In this document: positions 1 to 62,428 of the stretch, piece by piece | Position numbering within the stretch: position 1 is the stretch's first letter | How the letters are laid out: each line of letters starts with the position of its first letter | Origin: a virus | Direction: 5' to 3' (one strand) | UHGV virus genome: UHGV-1550212 | Length of the DNA: 64,000 nt | Position numbers and translations under genes: made by a program | The notes under the pieces: model-generated | Databases searched by the model: none | Told to the model about the DNA's origin: nothing | The model's input: only the letters and a program-made list of their open reading frames with translations

Positions 1-98
1 TTTCTTGTTTGTACAGCCATAGTATGAAATTGTTTGAAGTTTGTCTGTTATTTGTATTGCAGACAAGCTCGAACAATTTCATCATTCAAGTATGTCTG

Positions 99-506
99 CT
101 ATTTGTAGAAAGCGCGATTAATTAACACCCAACGAGTTGTGTTGCCTGCAATAAGAATTGCATATGACATTGCGCCAGTTGCATTTGCTGATACATCTGA
201 GTAGCCTGCTGCATAGTACAATGGCCCATTATTAAATGCAAATGTTGTTGTCGCATTGCAAACTGTTGCATTGCCTACTCGATTAATAACACATGATTCG
301 CCATATGTTAAGTTTGACAATGCGCATGTTATTGCTGACGATGTCGTTATATTATGCACTGTGTTTGCGACTGCATTAAATGACGCAGATTCAAGCGTCG
401 CATTCGCCATCAACGCACTATCAATGAGGTCGCCAAATTGTGCCGAGGTGGGTTTATCTCCGGTTTCAAAATACGTTTTGAGTACCGAACGTGTTTGAAC
501 TGCCAT
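99..506 (-). CDS. small tail-fibre-like protein (135 aa)
   Basis: ATG ORF. The N-terminal LKTYFETGDKPTSAQFGDLIDS motif resembles conserved phage tail-fibre N-termini (recognised from memory, not searched). It lies at the end of the fibre block. Confidence 0.6.
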   Translation of the reverse strand: MAVQTRSVLKTYFETGDKPTSAQFGDLIDSALMANATLESASFNAVANTVHNITTSSAITCALSNLTYGESCVINRVGNATVCNATTTFAFNNGPLYYAAGYSDVSANATGAMSYAILIAGNTTRWVLINRAFYK

Positions 507-726: not shown

Positions 727-876
727 TTTGCATCTTGCATCAAAACTCAAAAGTTTTGCATTTTGCATCAAAACAACATCTTAGTTGTTTTGCATCTTGC
801 ATCAAAACAACATCTTAGTTGTTTTGCATCTTGCATCAAAACAACATCTTAGTTGTTTTGCATCTTGCATCAAAAA
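727..876 (+). repeat. tandem array with five copies of the core (G)TTTTGCAT(C/T)TTGCATCAAAAC, including 2.6 copies of a 34-bp unit
   Basis: Cores lie at 727-746, 754-774, 787-808, 821-842 and 855-875. The 34-bp unit GTTTTGCATCTTGCATCAAAACAACATCTTAGTT occurs at 787-820 and 821-854. Confidence 0.9.
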
Positions 877-904: not shown

Positions 905-1261
905 ATGCAAATCCCTCGTAACTGGGGGGGGGCACAACAAGCCCTCCAACAAAGAAAGCTGTTAAAGCAGTTCACCGTACATATTTATACTCGGTACACT
1001 ATACCAATTAGACTGACATTTCTTGATAGAGAATTGCCACAAGAAGTTGGTCCTATTAAAACAGTGACGCCAATGTTGTATGATAATAGTACAGCTATCA
1101 CAATTTACAAAGGCACGCAAGTGTTCTATGATTTGTACTATGATGAAGTTAAGTTTGCTACGCATATCATAGCAACACAAGGCAACACAAACTATGGTGA
1201 AATTGAATTTGACGCTGATGATATCAAAGCATCAGAATATGCAATATACATTGGTATTTGA
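905..1261 (+). CDS. hypothetical small protein (118 aa; alternative start 1073)
   Basis: Only plausible plus-strand ORF here. ATG 905 lies about 30 nt after the last promoter-like repeat copy, and the bidirectional terminator 1333-1364 follows. A G9 tract occupies codons 7-9. The 785-904 part of the tracked ORF is translated tandem repeat. Confidence 0.45.
   Translation: MQIPRNWGGAQQALQQRKLLKQFTVHIYTRYTIPIRLTFLDRELPQEVGPIKTVTPMLYDNSTAITIYKGTQVFYDLYYDEVKFATHIIATQGNTNYGEIEFDADDIKASEYAIYIGI
920..936. repeat. right arm of inverted repeat: AACT-G9-CACA
   Basis: The G9 homopolymer at 924-932 lies inside codons 7-9 of ORF 905-1261. Confidence 0.85.
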
Positions 1262-3646: not shown

Positions 3647-6600
3647 TTATCGAACAAGGAATGACGTACCAACAACCATATTCGGGATTGCCAAGCCATT
3701 GCCAGACTGGCTTACTGCAACTGTGCCACTTGTGTAACCTGACAATGCTGCAGTAATTGTTGCCGACCTGCTGTTATCTGAACCCCAGTTATTTGCAGCG
3801 GACAATGTCGAACCTCTGATTGTGAATGCGCCATTGTTCGATGAGTACGTTGGAGTAACCGCAGCATCTGATGTTGTAGACTGACCTGTCGTGTACTTTG
3901 TGACAGTTCGACCTGTCGTAGACAATGTTGCAGTGCCACCAGCAGCCCCAAAGCTTGTAACAGTTGAGCTGACAATCAGAGTCTTCGTAGTCGAAGTCAC
4001 ACTGTTGGCTTCCTGTGTAGCAGTGATTGCTTTTGAGCCAGTTTGACCATTCAACGCAACCGTCATATTGACTGTAGCGGTTCTTGCAGAACCAGCAGTT
4101 GTGCCACGATTTGCAGCAGTCAATGAACCGGTTGTACTACTGTTAAGCGTAAAGCCAGTAGTTGTAGCCATACTGTATGAAATTGTACCGCCAGATGTAA
4201 TAGTAGTTTTTGAACCACTTGTGTACGTTGCTGTCTGCGAGTATGCTGGCGTGCCTGTTGGAGTCTTTGTTGCACCTGCTGCAGCAAATGTTGCATATGA
4301 TGTTGCTGTAGTAACTGTGACTGCACTGTATGATACACTGTTAGTTGCTTGATAGACATCAAGTGCTTTTGTAGCAGTCTTAGACCCTTCACCAGTAGCA
4401 GTTGCAGTCAAAGTGCCAATCTTTGTACGAGCTTTAACTGTAGTGCCAAGCGATGATGCGCTGACTTTTGTGCTATACGCAATGCTAACTGAGCCTGCCC
4501 TTGTGCTGCCAGACGTATATGTAATTGTCTGTGATGCACTGATGCCAGACATTGATGCGACTTCACCACCGCCAGCAGGAATATCTGATACAGAACCACC
4601 AGAGATTGTTACTGCGCCATATGTCGTAATTGCATTTGCAGCTTGGTACACATCGACTGCTTTTGTTCCAGATTTGCCATTGACTGTTACAGTAACAGTA
4701 GATGTTGTAATCTTTGTGCGGGCTTTAGCAGTAGTGCCAAGTGAACTACCAGACACTGCGCCAGTAGACGTTGTTACACCAGTACCAGACCATGATTTGC
4801 TGCCGCCAGACGTAACTGTCTGTGTTGAGCCACTTGACCACGTAACTGATTGACTGAATGACACCGTAGGCGTAACTGAGCCGCCTTTTGCAGGAATATC
4901 ACCATAAGTCATCGAAACTGTTGGCATGCCATATGTAGCAGCATTAGCATTTTGAGATGCAGTAGCAGTCTTTGTTCCACTGATAGTCTTTGTGCCTGCT
5001 GCGTTGTATGATGCAGTTGGCGTCCATGTAGCCTTTACAGTCTTTGTGACTGTTGGCGATGTTGTTGCACCACTTGCAGTAGTGCCTTTTGATGATGCGG
5101 TTATAGCACCAGTAGATGCATTGAGTGCAGTGAACAATCCTGATGCGCCTGGCCAGCTATATGATGTTGTAGTTGACAATGAACCATACGTAGATGCTGG
5201 CGCAGTAGTTGAAGTACTGCCACTACTAAAGTGGTATGTTACTGTGTTTGCACCATTTGACGGTGTAGATGTTCCGCCACCTGCAGCAATTGCAGGATAT
5301 GACATCGAACCAACTGCAATATTGAGTGCAGTCACATAGTTGCCTGCCTGATAAATCGTTGCAGACTTGCTGGCAGATTTGCCATTCATTGTGACTTTAA
5401 CAGTCAGTGTACCTGCAGTAGTCTGGTTAGATATTGTAGTGCCCTTTGATTGCACAGTGACTGTCGATGTGTACTCAATTGTTCCGCCGCTTGTCAGTGT
5501 TTCTGTCGTCTTTTCACCAGTAGCATATGTCGTAGTTTTGACTTGCGAATAAGTTACTGTACCAGATTTTACAGAACCGCCGCTTGCTGCAATGATAGTT
5601 GCAGACGGTGTCAAGTTAACTGTGATATCGCTATATGTAACTGTGCCAGCAGATTGAGCTGCTTGATAAACATCTGCAGCTTTTGATGCAGACTTACCGT
5701 TGAGTGCTACTGTGACAGTTAATGTGCCAATCTTTGTTCGTGGCTTAACTGATGTGCCAAGTGATGATGCAGATATACCTGCTGCTGGGCTATATGAAAT
5801 TGTGCCACCAGTAGTAATGTTCTGAGTTGATGTTGATGTGTATGTAGCAGTCTGCGAATATGACACATTGCCACTCTTAATTGTACCACCAGTTGCAGGA
5901 ATATCTGCTACAGTGAAGCTTGAAATTGTAACTGCGCCATATGACACAGTGTTTGCAGCTTGCTTGACTGTGCAAGAACCAGTTTTTGTAACACCGCCCT
6001 CAGTGTATGAGCCAGAAATTGTAATGCTGCGTTCTGCGCCTACGACTGTTGTGCGATTTGCTGCAGTTACTGTAGTAGTCGACAATGTAAAGCCAGTTGC
6101 TGAACCGCTAAGTGTTGCAGATACTGCAGCAGATGACGTTGAGCCTGATGCATATGTGTATGACGCTGTTGAAGTGATTGTAGTTGAACCGCCACCAGCT
6201 GCCAATGTTGCAGCGCCAGGTGTCAATGTCAAGCCATTCAGCGTCTTTGAGTTTGCAGTTTGTGTTGCAGTAGCAGTTTTTGTAGCAGACTTGCCATTGA
6301 TTGCTACCGTAACTGTGACAGCATTTGAAGCATCAGTAGAGCCTACATATGATGTGCCCATTGACGTTACAGTCAATGCGCCACTTGTCGTATTCAATGT
6401 CCAGCGTGACTTAGCAGTCATTGCATAAGACAATGTAGCACCACTTGTCAATGTGCCACCTGAGCCAGCTACGCCATTCCAAGTCCAGACTTGTGAATAT
6501 GAAACAGTTGGGTTTGATGTACCACCAGCAGGAGCAATGTTTGAATATGAGAACGTTCCAATGACAGGCGTTTCATAGACTTTAGCGCCTGCAGCTTGGT

Positions 6601-8030: not shown

Positions 8031-9959
8031 TTATCGAACATGCCAAAGAGTGTTCGACTTCACATTGACAGAGCTCTTAAAGTTATTATGACTGCACAGC
8101 CAAACATGCGACTTGTCAAGTTCTGCATAAGCATCTGACTTTAAGAATGCTTCAGAAGATTTGCTTGTCTGTTGCTTTGTCATTGACGCATCACCTACAA
8201 GCATTGCAGTCGAACCTTTATACACTTGTTGCGCATCATCTGCAATTAACGTAGCTTCAAATGGCTGTTGTTGCATAAGCAATGCAAGCGTAGACCGACA
8301 TGAATCTTTGTCTACTCTTATATGTGTAATTTTGCCGGCAAAACCATACAGCTGAACAATGTCTGAGTCATTTGACCAGTCATGCAAAATTGATGTAGAC
8401 TTAACAACTTCTGTCAAGATTTGCATGTCATTGACTGTGGTCGATGTTGACAAACTCAGTACAAGTTCAACGTCACCATTGTTAAGATTGCGTTGTCTAA
8501 TGACTACGCCGTTCCAGCTCTTGCAAATCTTATCATCTACGCTTGCTAAGCTTTCGCCAGTTTTGACATCAAGCACATGTAACAAGCCAGATGACACTGC
8601 AAGCATCAATCTGCCAAGTCGCATCAGTTGCCATGATGCTGCTTGAGCTTTTGCATTGTCTTCAAGCATAAACAAGCAACATGCAGACCAATCTGACGTA
8701 TCAAGTGATTTGACATACTCAACTGCAATGTCATTGCCAACTGCATTCATATCATAATATGCAGCAGACACTGGCACATATTTGAACGACAGCGGTGATT
8801 CATTTACACTGACTGCTTTATGAATGAATCTACGATTATTTTCGTACATGCTCAAGTCGACATGCATGTCATTAACAAACATATTGAGAGCAATGTCTTC
8901 GACTTGTTCAGTTGCAACTTTGTCTGCATCAAAAGTATCAAATGTTTTTGTGAGCTCGTCCAAATTAAGTATCTCTTTCACATCATCAGCAACTTGCATT
9001 TTAGACTCGTCACGGTATTCAGGTCGGTGCTCATATGACTTCAATGTCAGCTCATAATATGGCGTTGATAACATAATGCCATCTGGATGTTGCACAGATG
9101 CAACTTCAAGCATTCGATTTGCTATTGGTACATAGCAATAGTCAAATTGCTGTGGCTGCTTGCCAATGCCAAACACTCGTTCGTATTCTGCTTTTGGCAC
9201 ATGAGCCGTTATACCTTGTTCAAAGTCAATGTCAAATGCGTCATATGTGACTTTGTTCGTGCTAAATTCATTGTCAACAACCATCAGCTTCAGCCACTTA
9301 ACTGCACCAGTATGAATCAAGTCATATGCACGTAATGATGCAACACGATGTTCATCTGACACTTCATGACTAAACCAGATAACAACATGACCAAGCTGAC
9401 GATTCACAGCATTTACAATGTTATCTTGCAATACTATAGCATCTTGCATGTGCGTGTATGGATTGTACAGATGATTGTCTGATTCAATGACAATTGATGC
9501 TTGTTTTGCTGGTGCAAGAATCTCATCAGCGTATGTGACATTGTCAACAGATTCTTCGTTGACTTTGATATCTTCGAGTACGTATGAGTCATGACGAACG
9601 TTTGCTGCATCTGTCCATTGCTTGCGCCATGCAACATCAACAATCATAATGAACTTGACATGTACAGGCTCATCTGCAGTTGCATATGCAAGTACAAACT
9701 CATTCAAATGTGTCGCAGCGTCATACACAGAACCAGGCTCAGACCATGTCTTGCCTGCATCTACAGACCATTTGAATTGCACATTGAGCATTGCATAACA
9801 TTGCTCAGCGTTATCAACAAGCTCAATGTTATTCAATGAGCCTTTGATATCTACAGCAAATTCAAGATACAGTGTAGAATCTTGTCTTACGATGATGCAA
9901 TCGTCATCAGCCCTTTGTGACACTGACTGCTTTGTTGATTCGTTTGATGACTTTGCCAT
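8031..9959 (-). CDS. hypothetical tail/baseplate protein (642 aa)
   Basis: Long ATG ORF in the structural block. It overlaps the upstream gene by 53 nt. Confidence 0.75.
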   Translation of the reverse strand: MAKSSNESTKQSVSQRADDDCIIVRQDSTLYLEFAVDIKGSLNNIELVDNAEQCYAMLNVQFKWSVDAGKTWSEPGSVYDAATHLNEFVLAYATADEPVHVKFIMIVDVAWRKQWTDAANVRHDSYVLEDIKVNEESVDNVTYADEILAPAKQASIVIESDNHLYNPYTHMQDAIVLQDNIVNAVNRQLGHVVIWFSHEVSDEHRVASLRAYDLIHTGAVKWLKLMVVDNEFSTNKVTYDAFDIDFEQGITAHVPKAEYERVFGIGKQPQQFDYCYVPIANRMLEVASVQHPDGIMLSTPYYELTLKSYEHRPEYRDESKMQVADDVKEILNLDELTKTFDTFDADKVATEQVEDIALNMFVNDMHVDLSMYENNRRFIHKAVSVNESPLSFKYVPVSAAYYDMNAVGNDIAVEYVKSLDTSDWSACCLFMLEDNAKAQAASWQLMRLGRLMLAVSSGLLHVLDVKTGESLASVDDKICKSWNGVVIRQRNLNNGDVELVLSLSTSTTVNDMQILTEVVKSTSILHDWSNDSDIVQLYGFAGKITHIRVDKDSCRSTLALLMQQQPFEATLIADDAQQVYKGSTAMLVGDASMTKQQTSKSSEAFLKSDAYAELDKSHVWLCSHNNFKSSVNVKSNTLWHVR

Positions 9960-11457
9960 TGCGAGGATTTATGATTGCAAGTTCAATATCATAGTCGCCG
10001 ATATGACGAAAATGATGTCTAAAAAGATATTTGTCAGATGTAGCTTCAATGACACCACCAGATATTGCATTACGATATGCGCATGTCCATTTGATGTCAT
10101 GCGGAGCATAAGCATATGACAGCTCATCTGGGAAGCAGCACACTTGACTCCCAACTGTCACAGTTGCGCCATTGTCAATCTTGCAGAACCTTGTGTCATT
10201 TGGTCTACGTTGCACTGCATAGTGATGCTGACATTCAAACATGTCTGATTTGATTAACAGAGTTTGCCAAGGCGATTCAATGAGATATCGAGGCTTTTGA
10301 GACTCTTCACTTACAAGTTTACAATGCAGTCCAAGATTTTCAAGCTCTTCAACAAGTTGAGTATTTGCAATGTGTTGGGTGTAGTGTTTGTCATTTGTGT
10401 GTATTTCCACATCATGCTCAGTAGTGTCAACGACATCTGCAATAATTGTCGCAGGCCAGTTGCCAGTCAGCTCAAAATCATCAAATGCAAAATGCAAGTC
10501 GGTGTTAACATGCAATTGTGCTCTGCTCATAGGCTCTTTGCTGTACGCATACAATGCCCATTGCATTGAATTGTCAAGCATCTGAATTTCTTGCACAGAC
10601 CATGTAAACTTTGCAAATTGTGAATCTGCATGCAATTCACAGTAGTCATTGATTTGCTTAAGCAAGTCTTTAACATCTGCGTATGCAATGTTGACTTCAT
10701 CTGCATCAACTTGAATGCCATTGACATCGACAAACTCAGACATCGACATTGCAAATGTGTCAGCATCTTCAATATCAATTTGCATGTTCAGATATGTTGA
10801 GCCGTACTGCAACAATCGCATGCAATCAGAATCAACAAGTTTGATGTCATTCAAATGGTCAAGCCATAGAACATTTGATTGCGCCTTGTCAAGATTGTAG
10901 AGCCATTTTATGATTGAGTCGTCTTTTTTGACATTTTCTGGGTCAAACACATTTGGGTCTGGGTAGCTCATGAAATCTGGCACACCCAATGCTTTTCGTG
11001 TGCTATAGTACAATGTAGCATTGTTCATGCCTGCAATGTCAATTGACTCATCAGGCTCTTGAAGCTTTGCAGCAATTTGAGACAACGAATTGCCTGCATA
11101 TATCTGCTCAAGTGAATGTCGTTTGTTGTCTGCAATAGCAATGACAAAGTTTGCTTGCAATTCTACGATGTTCAGTGTGCGTTTGAATGCTTGTACTTGA
11201 CCATAACAATCTTTGATAGTCAACACAAGTTCATACACACCTGCAGTTGTTATGCCAAGCTTAAGATGCTGTTGAACATCAAGATACGTTCTGTCAAACA
11301 CAAGCTTGCCAGAATCATCATAGATTTCATACGTAGCTTCTCTACAATTTTGTATGAGCGCAGATAAGTCTGCGTCTTTTGATGACCATGCTGCAATTGA
11401 AATGTCTATAATTGCTACATTGTCTCTGTAAAAAAGCCCTATAGGTTGTGGATTCAT
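9907..11457 (-). CDS. hypothetical tail/baseplate protein with PKD/Ig-like segments (516 aa)
   Basis: Long ATG ORF. Beta-rich segments at both ends (YEIYDDSGKLVFDRTY..., ...GDYDIELAIINPRNGKV) look PKD-like by eye only. Confidence 0.7.
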   Translation of the reverse strand: MNPQPIGLFYRDNVAIIDISIAAWSSKDADLSALIQNCREATYEIYDDSGKLVFDRTYLDVQQHLKLGITTAGVYELVLTIKDCYGQVQAFKRTLNIVELQANFVIAIADNKRHSLEQIYAGNSLSQIAAKLQEPDESIDIAGMNNATLYYSTRKALGVPDFMSYPDPNVFDPENVKKDDSIIKWLYNLDKAQSNVLWLDHLNDIKLVDSDCMRLLQYGSTYLNMQIDIEDADTFAMSMSEFVDVNGIQVDADEVNIAYADVKDLLKQINDYCELHADSQFAKFTWSVQEIQMLDNSMQWALYAYSKEPMSRAQLHVNTDLHFAFDDFELTGNWPATIIADVVDTTEHDVEIHTNDKHYTQHIANTQLVEELENLGLHCKLVSEESQKPRYLIESPWQTLLIKSDMFECQHHYAVQRRPNDTRFCKIDNGATVTVGSQVCCFPDELSYAYAPHDIKWTCAYRNAISGGVIEATSDKYLFRHHFRHIGDYDIELAIINPRNGKVIKRINKAVSVTKG

Positions 11458-11918: not shown

Positions 11919-11935
11919 TGCTTATTCTGCATTGT

Positions 11936-13261
11936 TCATTCTGCGATTTCCCAGATTCGTGTTCGTTTATTTGCTATGCTTCGTACTACAGCACTGTCAC
12001 CTATGCGAACATCCCATGCTCGATTTGATGTCAATGTGATGTTCTTTGTGCCACCAGGCTGCTCAAATGATAAGTTTGCTTTGTCAAGTTCAAGCAATGG
12101 GGCCAAGTCCATGCTTTGGTCAATAAGCCAGTCAAAGTACTCAGCGTCAATTTGCGATGTATCAATGTCTGCTTCTGTGACTACAAAAATGTCATTAAGC
12201 TTGTTTGGTCTAACAGTGTCACCAATTGGCTCAAATGCAGTGCTTGGCAGAAGCATTGTATGTGGACGAATGTAAATGATGTCTTCATCTACAAATGCAT
12301 TCATATCTTTAACTATAATTTGCGCTGCTGGCGTGTATGGTTTTGATGTTACAATTTCTGCATTGTCTGAGCCATACAAATATCGAGCCATGTATGATGC
12401 AAAAACATCAATGCTGACATCTGCAAAATGAATGTGCTCTGGCAAAAAGACGTCTTCAAGAATCATGACAAGATACTGCAGCTTCAGCAACAAATCTTGA
12501 TTGTCTGCCATGTTCTTGACAAATTCAGGCATGCCACAATTCAGATATTTGCCAGACGCTTCATTGTATTCATAGGTCAATTGCAGCAAATTTGTGCGTT
12601 TGTACATGCCTGCGTATGGCGAAATGTCATCTTGCAATGGCAGCAATGTTCTGTTGTTGCCATCAAGTGATTTGAGCACTTCATAGATGCGAACAGCTTC
12701 ACTGTAGCCAAGCCAGTCTAATGCAGCATGCAACCCATTGTATGTGCCAAGCTTGCTGTCAATATCATCTCGTCGTATAAGCCACTCTCTTGCTTTGCTA
12801 TTCTGCAATATGAAGTCAACGACATCTTGTCGAATGTCATTCAGCATCAATGCTTTGTTGTAGTACTCAAGATAGTCATGACCCATATTAGACATCATGA
12901 CAAGCAAACGTTCATCAGCATCAACTACTGTAGCAGTCACATTGATATGCAATGCAATGTCATCAACGACAACTTCAATTGCACAAACGTTGTTGCCAAC
13001 ATCGACAGCATTGAATATGATGTTTGCAGTCATGTCGTCATTGACAAGATGCCGAGTAGTCTTATCTACAAGCAGCAATTCATTATTCTCATTAACTGCA
13101 AAGAAACTCAATGCAGACGATAGCAATCTAACTGTGCATTCAACATTGTCTGAAAACAATGATGCAATGTTATATGTGCCCTTTGACACATTGCCAAGCT
13201 CTATGTTAGCGCCGTCATAGATGCGCTTGCCGAATCTGTCAAAAATGTTTATTGCAGCCAT
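11936..13261 (-). CDS. hypothetical baseplate-module protein (441 aa)
   Basis: Long ORF. The tracked start at 13285 is TTG, so ATG 13261 (MAAINIFDRF...) is preferred. It lies downstream of the J-like gene. Confidence 0.7.
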   Translation of the reverse strand: MAAINIFDRFGKRIYDGANIELGNVSKGTYNIASLFSDNVECTVRLLSSALSFFAVNENNELLLVDKTTRHLVNDDMTANIIFNAVDVGNNVCAIEVVVDDIALHINVTATVVDADERLLVMMSNMGHDYLEYYNKALMLNDIRQDVVDFILQNSKAREWLIRRDDIDSKLGTYNGLHAALDWLGYSEAVRIYEVLKSLDGNNRTLLPLQDDISPYAGMYKRTNLLQLTYEYNEASGKYLNCGMPEFVKNMADNQDLLLKLQYLVMILEDVFLPEHIHFADVSIDVFASYMARYLYGSDNAEIVTSKPYTPAAQIIVKDMNAFVDEDIIYIRPHTMLLPSTAFEPIGDTVRPNKLNDIFVVTEADIDTSQIDAEYFDWLIDQSMDLAPLLELDKANLSFEQPGGTKNITLTSNRAWDVRIGDSAVVRSIANKRTRIWEIAE

Positions 13262-26360: not shown

Positions 26361-26392
26361 TGCATTTTGCATCACGAAGTGCATTTTGCATA
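26361..26392 (+). promoter_or_regulatory. two TGCATTTTGCAT boxes in the fibre-gene intergenic region
   Basis: The boxes lie at 26361-26374 and 26380-26392. Their orientation is opposite to that of the flanking minus-strand genes. Confidence 0.4.
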
Positions 26393-41363: not shown

Positions 41364-41732
41364 TTATTTGATTGCACGTTCAAACATTCTGCAGCACCAG
41401 TCTTTATATGCAGGATTGCCCTTGACATCTGCTCGGAATGCGCAGTTGATAAGAGTCTTCTCCTCATTAACAAAGCATGCATAACGGCAGTTTGCGCAAC
41501 AACGAGCATCTTCTTGTTTTGTGCAAAATGCTGCACATGTCATGTCATCTTCTGTGTTGCGAATTGTTTTTGTTGGCGTGTACTCATAAGTGCACTGACA
41601 AATGCCATTATGCTCACGATGAAAGAAGCAATTTTTGCAAATATGTGCAACTTCTTCAACTGGTGCTGATGCTGCATATGTTTGTTCTTGCTCTACTGCA
41701 GACTGTGCAGCAACTTTAGTCTTTTTTGCCAT
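41364..41732 (-). CDS. Cys-rich hypothetical protein (122 aa)
   Basis: Starts at ATG 41732 (MAKKTKV...), and the upstream tracked part is translated tandem repeat. Contains two C-x-N-C modules (CKNCFFH, CCANCRYAC). Confidence 0.6.
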   Translation of the reverse strand: MAKKTKVAAQSAVEQEQTYAASAPVEEVAHICKNCFFHREHNGICQCTYEYTPTKTIRNTEDDMTCAAFCTKQEDARCCANCRYACFVNEEKTLINCAFRADVKGNPAYKDWCCRMFERAIK

Positions 41733-41759
41733 TGTATCAAATATTTGTATTTGTAAGTT

Positions 41760-41833
41760 GTTTTGATGCAAAATGCAAAACAATATAAAATTGTTTTGAT
41801 GCAAAATGCAAAACAATATAAAATTGTTTTGAT
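41760..41833 (-). repeat. tandem array with 2.25 copies of a 33-bp unit carrying the same core (minus sense GTTTTGCATTTTGCATCAAAAC)
   Basis: The copies at 41760-41792 and 41793-41825 are identical. The array lies about 27 nt upstream of ATG 41732. Confidence 0.9.
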
Positions 41834-47797: not shown

Positions 47798-48768
47798 GAT
47801 TGCTGCACGAATTTTGAGAGCTCGAATGATAATGCGAGCATTGTTATGAATTGGTCAATTGATTGTTTCGACTCTACACCGTATTTGTGAGCTGCAATGA
47901 CAATGTCTCCAAGTCGTGCAACAAAACCGGGTGTGTTCTTTGAGAGCTTTGCATAGCACCAATTTGCAAAGTCAGTTGAGAGAGCATTGATGACTTCGGT
48001 TTCACGACCTTTGTATTGTGACAGTGTTTTGTAAAATTCACGTGGGTCTTTGCATGCAACAATGAAATCATACAGTTCTTCAAACTTTGCTGACATGCCC
48101 TTTGTGACATGCTCAAGCGTTATATGACGCTCGCCTTGATTGAAGACAAAGTAGCAAATGTTCAGAATTTTGCGGAAGTCTGGGTAGTTATCTTGAATTA
48201 GCTTGATGAGCGCTTCTTTTTCAATTGTGCATTCATTTTCCTTCAAGATATTGTAGACGCGAACCATGCATTTCTTCATCAACTGTTCTGCGACATCATC
48301 AGAAAAGTCGAATGATAGCATTTTGAGACGAGATTGAGCAATTGATGCATCAATGCGGTCTGGATAGTTGCAAGTTGCAATGAAAAACGCGATGCCTGCA
48401 AACTCTTCAATGGTGCCTCTTAAAGCCATCTGACTTTGCACAGATAAAAAATCCATTTCATCAAGCAGCACAACCTTTACGCCACTTGACGACAATGACA
48501 TATGCTGACAGAATTCTGAAATTGTGTTGCGAACTGTGTCAATGCCAGAATTCTTTGAGCAGTTAATTTGCAAAATTGAACGCCTATCAGTCCACTTCAA
48601 TGCCAATGCTCTTGCTGCGGTTGTTTTTCCACTTCCTGGTGCTCCTGCGAACAAATAATTTTGCGGCTGACCATTAAATGCTGCAGCATAATCATCAGGC
48701 ACAATTAACTCTTCGACTTTTGTTGGCCTGTAGCGTTCTAACCAAGTTTTATCTTTAAGGGATGCCAT
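47794..48768 (-). CDS. RFC-like AAA+ clamp-loader subunit (324 aa)
   Basis: Contains WLERYRPTKVEELI (RFC box II), Walker A GAPGSGKTT, Walker B VLLDEMD and an SRL (SRC-like) motif. Start ATG 48768 is preferred because the tracked start is TTG. Confidence 0.85.
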   Translation of the reverse strand: MASLKDKTWLERYRPTKVEELIVPDDYAAAFNGQPQNYLFAGAPGSGKTTAARALALKWTDRRSILQINCSKNSGIDTVRNTISEFCQHMSLSSSGVKVVLLDEMDFLSVQSQMALRGTIEEFAGIAFFIATCNYPDRIDASIAQSRLKMLSFDFSDDVAEQLMKKCMVRVYNILKENECTIEKEALIKLIQDNYPDFRKILNICYFVFNQGERHITLEHVTKGMSAKFEELYDFIVACKDPREFYKTLSQYKGRETEVINALSTDFANWCYAKLSKNTPGFVARLGDIVIAAHKYGVESKQSIDQFITMLALSFELSKFVQQS

Positions 48769-48814
48769 TTGTTGTTTGTTGTGATATGTGATATGATGCA
48801 AAATGCATATTCAT

Positions 48815-48858
48815 ATTGTATATGAATATGATACAACAAACGTGTCAATTTTGCACAG
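48815..48858 (-). promoter_or_regulatory. early/middle-type promoter-like motif
   Basis: Minus sense CTGTGCAAAATTGACACGTTTGTTGTATCATATTCATATACAAT. It overlaps the last 14 nt of HE paralogue 3 and is followed by a TGCATTTTGCATCA box. Confidence 0.45.
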
Positions 48859-60716: not shown

Positions 60717-60737
60717 TTTGTATATGTACATAAAAGA
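60717..60737 (-). promoter_or_regulatory. late-type promoter-like motif (CTTTTATGTACATATACAAAC)
   Basis: It lies between terminator 60736-60765 and ATG 60701. Confidence 0.4.
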
Positions 60738-61160
60738 GCAAGTTCTCAATGTGGAGAACTTGCTCAGCTGACCTGTTGCCAGGTGAAAGCGTGGTGCAGC
60801 ACCTTGTGCTGCAATGGCTATGCTGCCATCGCCATAACGGGCTGAGCATTGCCCAGCATCATTACACGACCAGCTGCATTAAGCGTACGCTTTGCTTTGT
60901 TGAAAAATTTGCCAGTTATCTGGTATCTGCACATCTATTCAAGCGACCTACTATGCAATCAAATGCCTGTCGAGCCCAATGTTTGAGCAGTTGTTTGTCA
61001 GATGCTCAGCTGACTGCAGTCTTTCTGAGTGTATCAAGTTCAGCGATTCTGCATCTTTGCTAAATGGCAATAGTTCAGGTGGACTCGCCGAGAATCGAAC
61101 TCGGGTCTTACATAGCGCATCCTTGACTTGGTCCTGTAAACAGGGTTGTCAACATGCATT
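60732..61160 (-). ncRNA. ssrA: candidate circularly permuted (two-piece) tmRNA-like gene: acceptor piece about 61160-61078, spacer 61077-60978, coding piece 60977 to about 60736
   Basis: Hand fold. The T-arm CCGAG-UUCGAUU-CUCGG is followed by the 3' acceptor strand CGAGUCC-A-CC (61104-61078). The 5' acceptor strand GGGCUCG (60977-60971) gives 7 bp with G3.U70 and A73. The P2a-like pairing is UUGCAUAG (60958-60951) with CUAUGUAA (61115-61108). An AUG-less frame ends ...GNAQPVMAMAA-UAG (stop at 60818-60820) inside hairpin 60811-60832. The terminator is at 60736-60765. Confidence 0.5.
60736..60765 (-). terminator. rho-independent terminator that ends the tRNA/tmRNA-like transcription unit
   Basis: Perfect 12-bp stem GAGCAAGTTCTC/GAGAACTTGCTC with a 6-nt loop, followed by UUUUAU. 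Confidence 0.8.
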
Positions 61161-61231
61161 GCAATACGACAGGACTCGAACCTGCGACCTCGGATTGGAC
61201 GTCCGCGCTCTTACCGCTGAGCTACGTATTC
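61161..61231 (-). tRNA. atypical tRNA, Gly(UCC)-like
   Basis: Hand-folded 71-nt cloverleaf with D-arm GCUC/GAGC and T-arm GCAGG-UUCGAGU-CCUGU. The anticodon loop is CGUCCAA, which puts G at position 33. There is a G1.G72 mismatch and no clear nucleotide 26. Confidence 0.5.
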
Positions 61232-61321
61232 TTATCAATTGACTGCACTGCAATGCAATCAATCGTGCCAATGATATTTGACGCATAATTGCAGTTATGC
61301 GTAACAATTCAAATGTCATTG

Positions 61322-61394
61322 AGCCAACTGCAGGAGTCGAACCTGTAACCTGCTGATTACAAATCAGCTGCTCTGCCAATTGAGCTAAGTTGGC
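61322..61394 (-). tRNA. tRNA-Thr(UGU)
   Basis: Acceptor GCCAACU/AGUUGGC, anticodon arm GCUGA-UUUGUAA-UCAGC, T-loop UUCGACU. Confidence 0.9.
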
Positions 61395-61396
61395 AT

Positions 61397-61475
61397 AAAG
61401 TCGTTGGGCCATTGCAACCCAAACCTATCATCTTTGTCTAACCAAAGATGCAAGTGTTCTCTTACACCACGACTT
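61397..61475 (-). tRNA. non-canonical tRNA-like gene (identity undetermined)
   Basis: Perfect 7-bp acceptor AAGUCGU/ACGACUU. A single linker nucleotide precedes the D-arm GUGU-AAGAGA-ACAC, which lacks GG. The central stem is 8 bp, CAUCUUUG/CAAAGAUG, with a 6-nt loop GUUAGA. The T-arm is UGGGU-UGCAAUG-GCCCA, lacking U-psi-C. It sits 1-2 nt from canonical tRNAs on both sides. Confidence 0.4.
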
Positions 61476-61476
61476 G

Positions 61477-61548
61477 TAGCCGAACTTGGAGTCGAACCAA
61501 GCTTTCGAGAATGAAAATCTCGCGTCCTAACCGATAGACGAAACGGCC
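61477..61548 (-). tRNA. tRNA-Glu(UUC)
   Basis: Anticodon arm CGAGA-UUUUCAU-UCUCG and T-arm CUUGG-UUCGACU-CCAAG. The acceptor has two U.U mismatches, at 6:67 and 7:66. Confidence 0.75.
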
Positions 61549-61731
61549 AAGAGCAGTTCAAGTCTGCAGCATTGAACTGCGGAAACAATGCCTGTACGGG
61601 CAGCAAATTGTGCAGATACAGCGACATTGCAAAATCACACCGAACCAAGTTTGTGGCTCTTCTGTCTCATAAAAACAAGTAATCATTACACTTGGCACCA
61701 ATGATTCTGATGTAAAAATCGGTGTGTTATG

Positions 61732-61816
61732 CGGAGAGTAAGGGATTCGAACCCCTGGTACGTTGCCGTACAGTGGTTTTCAAGACCACCGCCATCGACC
61801 GCTCGGCCAACTCTCC
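61732..61816 (-). tRNA. tRNA-Ser(UGA)
   Basis: Class II tRNA. Acceptor GGAGAGU/ACUCUCC, anticodon loop CUUGAAA, 16-nt variable arm, T-loop UUCGAAU. Confidence 0.9.
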
Positions 61817-62010
61817 ATAAAACATTGCATAAGCATTCTTATCTCTTGATGAGACCAAGTAGCTAATTTGGCAAGTTTGTTATATCTATCGTGACTGTTG
61901 CAGTTTGTTTGTCACTCAATACACAAAACTTTCGAACATTCATTGACAGCACTGCAATATCGCTTTTTAAGCTTAGCCATCAATGTATTTATGCAATGTA
62001 TAACAATTCG

Positions 62011-62092
62011 TAGCCAAACCGGGACTTGAACCCAGACTCCTAATGGAACAACATTTTGAGTGTTGCGTGTCTACCAATTCCACCATTTGGCC
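62011..62092 (-). tRNA. tRNA-Leu(CAA)
   Basis: Class II tRNA. Anticodon arm CAACA-CUCAAAA-UGUUG, 13-nt variable arm, T-arm CUGGG-UUCAAGU-CCCGG. Confidence 0.9.
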
Positions 62093-62182
62093 ATTTACAA
62101 ATGCAATCTATTTCACAACTGTTTGCATTTGCATTGTTTAACACTAAAAATATGATTCATCTAATCAAAAACCAGAGAATTG

Positions 62183-62256
62183 TAGGGTAGACAGGACTCA
62201 AACCTGCGACCACGTGGTCCCAAACCACGCATTCTAATCAACTGAACTACTACCCT
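62183..62256 (-). tRNA. tRNA-Pro(UGG)
   Basis: Acceptor AGGGUAG/CUACCCU and anticodon arm CGUGG-UUUGGGA-CCACG. The T-loop UUUGAGU is slightly atypical. Confidence 0.85.
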
Positions 62257-62262
62257 AAGTAG

Positions 62263-62334
62263 TTGAACCGTCTGGACTCGAACCAGAAATGGCTGAACCA
62301 AAATCAGCTGTGTTACCGATTACACCACGATTCA
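62263..62334 (-). tRNA. tRNA-Gln(UUG)
   Basis: U1-A72 acceptor UGAAUCG/CGGUUCA, anticodon arm GCUGA-UUUUGGU-UCAGC, T-loop UUCGAGU. Confidence 0.9.
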
Positions 62335-62389: not shown

Positions 62390-62428
62390 TATAGTGATAT
62401 AATACTACAAACATTTATGATTTGCACC
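62390..62428 (-). promoter_or_regulatory. early/middle-type promoter-like motif upstream of the tRNA array
   Basis: Minus sense GGTGCAAATCATAAATGTTTGTAGTATTATATCACTATA, about 55 nt upstream of the tRNA-Gln 5' end. Confidence 0.45.

Follow-up and report, generated by a model that had tools for sequence, protein, structure and literature searches.

A candidate operator-like box with variable palindromic spacers, repeated in tandem at two loci of a large human-gut phage

The DNA considered here is the first 64 kb (64,000 nucleotides, called the window throughout) of a gut-metagenome contig of about 176 kb, the virus genome UHGV-1550212, and the element in question is a short repeat that is arranged in tandem at two of its loci and found singly or in a pair at others. 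An ENA contig of 176,073 bp, near-identical in sequence, has the same first base as the window. The genes of the window include a terminase, an NAD-dependent ligase, a T4-type clamp loader, a topoisomerase, a DHFR and seven tRNAs, and so identify the DNA as that of a phage; almost all of them are carried on the minus strand, and the replisome genes are T4-like. GenBank contains no phage similar to the window at the DNA level, and the clamp loader is about 35% identical to those of Flavobacteriia jumbo phages and of Sphingomonas phage PAU. A weak match to a BACON domain hints at a Bacteroidota host. The phage is a member of an uncharacterised group of large human-gut phages, with a genome of about 176 kb and T4-like replication genes, whose nearest cultured relatives stand at about 35% protein identity.

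The first of the two arrays, array 1, extends over positions 711 to 876 on the plus strand and consists of five units, of which two measure 28 bp and three 34 bp, followed by an open reading frame that starts at position 905 (ORF905). Array 2 lies at 41758 to 41833 on the minus strand, where two 33-bp units and the partial arm of a third fill the space between the stop codon of the NAD-ligase gene (41836) and the ATG at 41732 of a gene for a Cys-rich protein of 122 amino acids (aa; 41364 to 41732, minus strand). No terminator-like site was found in the interval between the ligase gene and array 2. A 22-bp core, GTTTTGCATYTTGCATCAAAAC, is matched with at most three mismatches at 725-746, 753-774, 787-808, 821-842 and 855-876 on the plus strand and at 41760-41781 and 41793-41814 on the minus strand, seven matches in the window against 0.02 expected from shuffled sequences. 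By Tandem Repeats Finder, the repeat period at 711-875 is 28 or 34, and at 41758-41833 it is 33, for 2.3 copies. An earlier reading of the same DNA, made from the sequence only, had counted five cores in array 1 and 2.25 copies at 41760-41833; both counts are confirmed, the former over 725-876 and the latter as two core matches with a partial unit over 41758-41833.

Within the core, an inner 12-mer, TGCATYTTGCAT, occurs 11 times in the window, against 0.49 expected. Four of these copies lie outside both arrays, where 0.3 to 0.4 would be expected under Markov models of orders 1 to 5, and three of the four are intergenic; the excess of these four copies holds despite a window-wide enrichment in words that contain TGCA. 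A single box, TGCATTTTGCATCA, is located at 48794-48807 on the minus strand (12-mer at 48796-48807), 25 nt upstream of the clamp-loader ATG at 48768. This copy had been noticed before, and only its position is changed, by 7 nt from the previous 48787-48800. It is found downstream of a phage-type promoter, GTGCAA-N17-TATCAT, that starts at 48856, and it is abutted by an 11-bp stem-loop, CATATTCATAT-ACA-ATATGAATATG, at 48806-48830 on the minus strand (-8.6 kcal/mol). Two further boxes, GTGCATTTTGCAT, are at 26361-26372 and 26380-26391 on the plus strand, 19 nt apart, as the inverse copies described earlier beside the fibre gene. They follow the stop codon of a gene for a 1267-aa protein and precede a gene for a 1112-aa fibre-like protein (ATG 26295), and are oriented opposite to these flanking minus-strand genes. 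The last copy, at 10485-10496 on the minus strand, is inside the coding sequence of the gene at 9907-11457, has no flanking arms and is probably a chance match. The 64 kb thus hold four intergenic loci and one intragenic copy.

A unit of an array can be described as an 8-bp direct repeat, ATCAAAAC, then a variable palindromic spacer that ends in GTTTTG, and then a 10-nt box, CATYTTGCAT. Each next unit starts with ATCAAAAC again, such that CAAAAC and GTTTTG arms alternate along the array. The boxes of array 1 are at 731-740, 759-768, 793-802, 827-836 and 861-870 on the plus strand, and those of array 2, which read TGCATTTTGCAT, are at 41766-41777 and 41799-41810 on the minus strand. The box is invariant except at its Y position in about 20 distinct copies from nine assemblies, and the spacers next to it vary in both sequence and length. 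Seven spacer variants (S1 to S7) are found in the window and related strains, all with CAAAAC/GTTTTG arms at their ends. The additional complementarity sits in the spacer, which is a self-contained palindrome, and several variants, with loops of 4 to 6 nt, lengthen the pairing with different bases (AAC/GTT, AAT/ATT, T/A or AATA/TATT); chimeric units retain just the 6-bp arms across the box. The predicted spacer hairpins are A/U-rich and weak, at 0 to -8.3 kcal/mol, and two of the variants barely fold. The hairpin at the clamp loader is unrelated in sequence to the array palindromes, and its layout, hairpin and then box, is the same. Another way to read the core is as three heptads, of which GTTTTGC and ATTTTGC are direct and GTTTTGA is inverted; the box then corresponds to two direct heptads RTTTTGC, which in the arrays are followed by the inverted third.

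Contigs of the same species (designated L001, L007 and so on) were available from IMG/VR, ENA and JGI data, with flanking DNA 93-99.9% identical to that of the window, and they differ widely in the number of units. Array 1 has five units in the window and in L017, three in L018, two in L007 and one each in L267 and L268; in L140 it has at least four, given that the contig ends inside the array. Array 2 has two units and the partial arm in the window, three units in L001, and two in L012-L016 and L141, in which the first spacers differ. The fibre-adjacent boxes number two in the window and one in strain L146, and at the fibre gene the box stands as a conserved island inside a diverged stretch. 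The clamp-loader box is part of a segment of about 35 nt that is missing from L001, a strain 94% identical, so that regulation there would be accessory rather than part of the core machinery. These copy numbers come from short-read assemblies, in which identical 34-bp units can be miscounted, and part of the variation is perhaps technical; single-unit arrays and arrays of mixed type are not explicable in this way.

Since ATCAAAAC bounds every unit, unequal crossing-over or slippage between the bounding repeats is a sufficient mechanism for the change from one to five units among strains with near-identical flanks. The multimerisation, which had been taken as a sign of function, therefore looks like copy-number drift rather than a designed feature. 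One could go further and suggest that the repeats have no function at all, as slippage-prone or selfish palindromes, similar to repetitive extragenic palindromic (REP) sequences or miniature inverted-repeat transposable elements (MITEs), that spread and expand neutrally. Such an origin would account for an extremely variable copy number among near-identical strains, for the confinement to one species, and for the association with indels, namely an insertion by the clamp-loader gene and, at ORF905, loss of the gene or a gene remnant in its place; relatives, moreover, carry different tandem arrays at other intergenic sites. We consider it unlikely, given that the 12-nt box is invariant while the adjoining spacers and flanks diverge, that the sites are few per genome and almost all intergenic, and that neither target-site duplications nor the terminal inverted repeats of a mobile unit were seen. 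The comparison of strains does show that such cis-elements expand, contract and move quickly, and it calls for caution in reading function into copy number.

The reading that we tentatively place first, while giving it somewhat less than an even chance, is that the box TGCATYTTGCAT is an operator-like DNA site for a sequence-specific factor, with a copy number that drifts by unequal crossing-over. The functional element would be one composite unit, the box with its adjoining short palindrome, and not the multimer. A factor encoded by the phage or by its host would tune transcription of the neighboring genes. Where the box lies between a promoter and a start codon, as at the clamp loader and array 2, the bound factor could block or modulate RNA polymerase, and upstream of late-type genes, such as the fibre gene and the gene at 99-506, it could act from upstream. 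Tandem copies would arise between ATCAAAAC repeats, and their number would at most set the dose.

Several features argue for this reading. The box is far more frequent than expected by chance, and it appears to be under constraint because it is invariant beside variable spacers and forms a conserved island at the fibre gene. It is present in both orientations relative to neighboring genes, which fits recognition of double-stranded DNA. The clamp-loader box, between a phage-type promoter and the ATG, has the position of a classical operator. Only two armed arrays were found in the whole of a related 175-kb genome, which points to a small regulon rather than to a class of promoters. The proposal that the repeats are binding sites for a regulator is thus the best account of the invariant box, and no protein to bind it was found. 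What the sequences show is the build of the unit, its non-random occurrence, the constancy of the box beside variable spacers, the changing copy number and the confinement to one species; we infer that a protein binds, that it binds DNA rather than RNA, and the direction in which it would regulate. If so, the box provides a short handle for finding a regulator.

Other observations weigh against an operator. No DNA-binding domain was recognized among about 30 window proteins scanned with Pfam and PHROGs, a set drawn from 64 kb of the genome of about 176 kb. The unit counts rest on the short-read assemblies mentioned above. In relatives with 63% and 48% identical proteins the corresponding sites lack the motif, such that deep conservation does not support a function. 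The palindromes by the box keep their complementarity through changes in sequence and loop length, and an unrelated hairpin occupies the same place at the clamp loader; both favor a single-stranded, RNA-type element and are unexplained by binding to double-stranded DNA. Nine of the 11 boxes, finally, are in the sense orientation and 25-34 nt from an ATG.

These last points lead to the possibility, ranked second, that the unit acts as RNA, in a leader or between cistrons. The transcribed palindrome would form a stem-loop and CAUYUUGCAU would be a single-stranded site for an RNA-binding protein or a ribonuclease, through which the gene starting 25-34 nt downstream would be controlled at the level of RNA processing, RNA stability or translation. 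We regard this as possible, if less probable than an operator. It is consistent with the common ends of S1 to S7 and the different bases by which several of them lengthen the pairing, with the 11-bp hairpin at the clamp-loader box, and with the location of array 2 between co-directional genes with no terminator. The two arrays and the clamp-loader site are all sense-oriented at similar distances from the ATG (28, 27 and 25 nt), and the arrays fold with energies below those of shuffled sequences (z = -4.6 and -2.5). The hairpins themselves are weak, however, and the box is no more accessible than its surroundings, with an unpaired probability of 0.43-0.51 against 0.46-0.50 overall in the arrays. 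The conserved boxes beside the fibre gene are opposite in orientation and have no stem, and a search of the repeats against Rfam 15 gave chance-level matches only, none at the gathering threshold and thus no family. The distance to the ATG also differs by 6 nt between close strains. The operator-like site and the RNA leader are not told apart by this evidence, and we keep the former first.

The distance to the start codon had been described as always 27-30 nt. In the window this is approximately correct for ATG 905, 41732 and 48768 but not for the fibre-adjacent copies, which are reversed and stand about 65-95 nt away from ATG 26295, and in near-identical strains it breaks down. In L140, sequence that precedes the probable bidirectional terminator follows about 25 nt after array 1, with no gene between, and in L007 what comes after array 1 is a 3' remnant of a different gene. 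L001 and L141 have 33 nt between array 2 and the ATG, where the window has 27 nt.

The tandem arrangement had also suggested stacked promoters, in which each unit would be a promoter read by the host RNA polymerase or one modified by the phage, possibly as a cassette of the promoter-early stem-loop (PeSL) type. The phage family does have a clear promoter-like pattern of its own in intergenic gaps, both in the window and in the relatives at 48% identity: GTGCAA, then 17-18 nt ending in TTGTwG, then TAnnAT. There are 14 matches to GTGCAA-N17/18-TAnnAT in the window, against 1.7 expected, and none is in the arrays. About eight of the 14 are just upstream of minus-strand gene starts or of the tRNA cluster. 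On the minus strand of the window the pattern starts, among other places, at 62427, 60110, 60060, 59992, 57778, 48856, 44470 and 22876, and in relatives it is found at about 2860 and 12540 in L142 and about 3610 and 13700 in L144. A palindrome, GTGCAAAnTTTGCAC, sometimes precedes it. This phage-wide pattern is a second handle on gene control.

For promoters within the units speak their sense orientation, their promoter-like distance from the ATG, and the lack of any other recognizable promoter in the gaps upstream of ORF905 and the Cys-rich gene. The internal units of array 2 can be read by eye as TTGCAT-N18-TATATT, and the association with indels and a variable gene resembles that of PeSLs in T4-type phages (PMC2839356, PMC4122927). 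A sigma-70 scan of both arrays nevertheless gave no sense-strand site, only antisense matches in array 2 (TTGATG-17-TAAAAT). The units of array 1 have no -10-like hexamer, and no unit matches the pattern of the phage family itself. In addition, two arrays per 175 kb are too few for a class of promoters, and the array of L140 faces a terminator with no gene between. Stacked promoters are thus quite unlikely. Promoters of the Bacteroidota type (TTTG ... TAnnTTTG) were also considered by eye, and no unit matches.

The repeats had further been read as iteron-like sites for an initiator. They would then be iterons of one or two replication origins, where the initiator would bind beside an AT-rich region of unwinding, as in lambda ori, P4 ori/crr and SPP1 oriL/oriR. 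The same repeat does occur in two clusters 41 kb apart, one inside the replication gene module and the other in a 398-bp non-coding, AT-rich region between divergent genes, and the units combine direct and inverted symmetry. Positions 640-700 are AT-rich, as is most of the intergenic DNA in the window. Yet L267 and L268 have array 1 as a single unit, the flanking and other window proteins scanned gave no recognizable initiator or Rep domain, relatives that keep the gene order (those with 63% and 48% identical proteins) have no arrays at these sites, and the cumulative GC skew has no turning point at either array. The T4-like replisome genes also count against iterons; replication of the T4 type relies mainly on promoter-type origins and recombination. 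An origin is, on this evidence, very improbable. The suggestion that the Cys-rich protein is an initiator or regulator that controls its own gene through array 2 was rejected as unlikely, given that its orthologues have no repeats upstream.

The repeat is confined to one phage species. In the JGI metagenomes scanned, the 22-mer was found in this species alone, and a set of 185,579 genomes, one per species, did not contain it. An 18-mer gave six single matches that are unrelated and inside coding DNA, and the 14-mer TGCATTTTGCATCA, searched against viral contigs, gave chance-level single matches only among the matches listed, which is uninformative. In the relative with a 63% identical Cys-rich protein, the junction between ligase and Cys-rich gene is 48 nt long and lacks the motif. 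In relatives that share the gene order and whose ligase is 48% identical, such a box is likewise missing from the vicinity of the ligase, Cys-rich and clamp-loader genes. The core is thus conserved within the species and absent from the corresponding sites of these relatives. A CRISPR array, or a mimic of CRISPR repeats, was rejected, since the spacers are identical within an array and the 22-mer is without a match in the genomes named above.

The 48%-ligase relatives carry other tandem arrays in the replication module, one of them with a 16-bp unit, TTAAAAAGAATTGACA. There are 10.4 copies in L145 (5119-5285) and 4.7 plus 3.7 copies in L144 (5052-5285), and the array ends about 10 nt before the ATG of a gene for an acidic protein of 46-50 aa. 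L144 and L145 also have a 22-bp tandem duplication across the ligase stop codon (11928-11973), which is the insertion point, relative to L142, of a gene for a 397-aa protein between the ligase and the Cys-rich gene. A looser pattern of two boxes brought up bacterial heptanucleotide satellites, (TGCATNN)n, which were set aside as unrelated simple repeats with no common neighboring gene and no preferred distance to a start codon. Between genes, long satellites of this kind, (TGCATTT)n or (TGCATCY)n, are spread over many phyla (bacterial genomes L147-L266), often with an inverted array nearby, and there are several per genome in some Bacteroidota and Alistipes.

The surroundings of array 1 are variable in other ways. 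On its left, the gene for a 135-aa protein at 99-506 (minus strand) is transcribed away from the array and is its neighbor in every assembly that covers that side; the protein has an N-terminus common to paralogues and, in strain L007, a different C-terminus. The start of the window (1-212) is repeated at 89% identity in L017 at 5375-5580, 1.3 kb further left, where small fibre-like genes stand as tandem paralogues with the common N-terminus MAVQTRSVLKTYFETGDKPT. This repeat is probably the reason that two independent assemblies are broken at the same base. On the right, ORF905 (905-1261, plus strand) encodes 118 aa. The window, L017, L018, L267 and L268 have it, L007 has a gene remnant in its place and L140 lacks it altogether, so that it is an accessory gene; homologues in other strains are 91-92% identical and 118-144 aa long. 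Beyond it, a perfect 32-bp palindrome, AAAAAGACTCAGCAATATTGCTGAGTCTTTTT, at 1333-1364, with flanking runs of A and T, is located between convergent genes. All strains examined conserve this sequence, which is probably a bidirectional terminator.

On either side of array 1 stands a homopolymer, ten C at 617-626 and nine G at 924-932, the only G or C runs of seven or more in the 64 kb. The G tract spans codons 7-10 of ORF905. It is G9 and in frame in the window, G10 and frameshifted in L017, L018 and L267, and G13 and in frame in L268; as judged from the protein, it is about G12 in P0029. The C tract on the other side of the array has 7, 9 or 10 residues between assemblies. The differences suggest that a small gene of the fibre region is phase-variable through its homopolymer, and sequencing error in long G runs may contribute. 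To our knowledge, poly-G host-range switches have so far been documented mainly in Campylobacter phages. With its hypervariable tract, ORF905 may be another host-range switch; homopolymer phase variation is described for Campylobacter phages by Sorensen et al. 2021, as cited in PMC10877375.

The two tracts belong to inverted cassettes. The left cassette, at 611-664, has AAAAACTCA, a minus-strand ATG at 645 and AACTG10 (the C tract of the plus strand), and it is mirrored at 887-936 by the right cassette, with TTCAAAAACTCA, ATG 905 and AACTG9CACA. Both arms are divergent copies of a 'gene-start cassette' made up of AAAAACTCA, an ATG, about five codons and AACTGn. They form an inverted repeat, TGTGA-C10-AGTT at 611-629 with AACT-G9-CACA at 920-936, and a nested one at 653-664 and 887-898. 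Although these inverted repeats are real, the idea of an invertible promoter segment (inverton) at 611-936 was abandoned, as all five assemblies with both arms have the same orientation. No recombinase for such an inversion was recognized. It is conceivable, if improbable, that array 1, the inverted cassettes and the C and G tracts make up a multi-layer contingency locus in the tail-fibre region. The number of repeats of a factor-binding box would then set the level of expression, ORF905 would be turned on or off by the length of its poly-G tract, and a host or phage factor that recognizes TGCA-N3-TGCA would couple this locus to the replication genes.

Two features elsewhere in the window were noted in passing. 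ARAGORN calls a permuted tmRNA at 60727-61169 on the minus strand, with a tag peptide that ends in PVMAMAA, and at 60818-61138 the Rfam model tmRNA_permuted scores 30.8 bits, below its gathering score of 47 (E = 2e-4). The call adjoins the seven tRNA genes at 61161-62334. Throughout the window, hexamers with TGCA or GCA (GCAGCA, GCTGCA, CTGCAG, TTGCAG, TGCAAT and TGCAAA) are 6- to 10-fold more frequent than expected from base composition.

Among systems with which the box and its arrays can be compared, the operators of the ribbon-helix-helix repressor omega of pSM19035 are contiguous 7-bp repeats, direct and inverted, in numbers that vary by site. The heptads here are arranged similarly upstream of several genes (GTTTTGC, ATTTTGC, A, TCAAAAC). 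Their sequence is different, however, with two or three heptads per unit and palindromic spacers between the units, and no ribbon-helix-helix protein was recognized among the window proteins scanned with Pfam and PHROGs. Iterons, such as those of lambda ori, P4 ori/crr and SPP1 oriL/oriR, are tandem units of about 20-30 bp with internal symmetry, sometimes in two clusters, near AT-rich DNA. The repeats described here differ in that they are a single copy in some strains, have no initiator found for them, and are without arrays in relatives with the same gene order.

The stoperators of cluster A mycobacteriophages are asymmetric sites of about 13 bp at which bound repressor halts elongation (PMC9283540). 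Like the boxes, they are in short intergenic spaces, mostly oriented with transcription, between promoter and gene. They number more than 20 per genome and are never in tandem, and they belong to temperate phages with a known repressor (PMC9283540), whereas the sites here are few and one conserved site is reversed. No lysogeny gene, either repressor or integrase, was recognized in the window.

PeSLs of T4-type phages combine a consensus sigma-70 promoter with a strong terminator hairpin, are present in many copies per genome and are not tandemly multimerised (PMC2839356, PMC4122927). The arrays differ in having neither a -35/-10 match nor a terminator-like site, so that both the consensus early promoter and the strong terminator stem-loop of a PeSL are missing, and in being tandem and only two per 175 kb. 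The likenesses are nonetheless several. Both are short, repeated intergenic cassettes in which a stem-loop and a regulatory box closely precede a start codon. Both are carried by phages with T4-like replication genes and have poly-G and poly-C tracts nearby. Both are also located where close strains differ by insertion, deletion or replacement of genes, here at the ORF905 locus and at the indel with the clamp-loader box. Of the known systems compared, PeSL cassettes are therefore the closest in concept.

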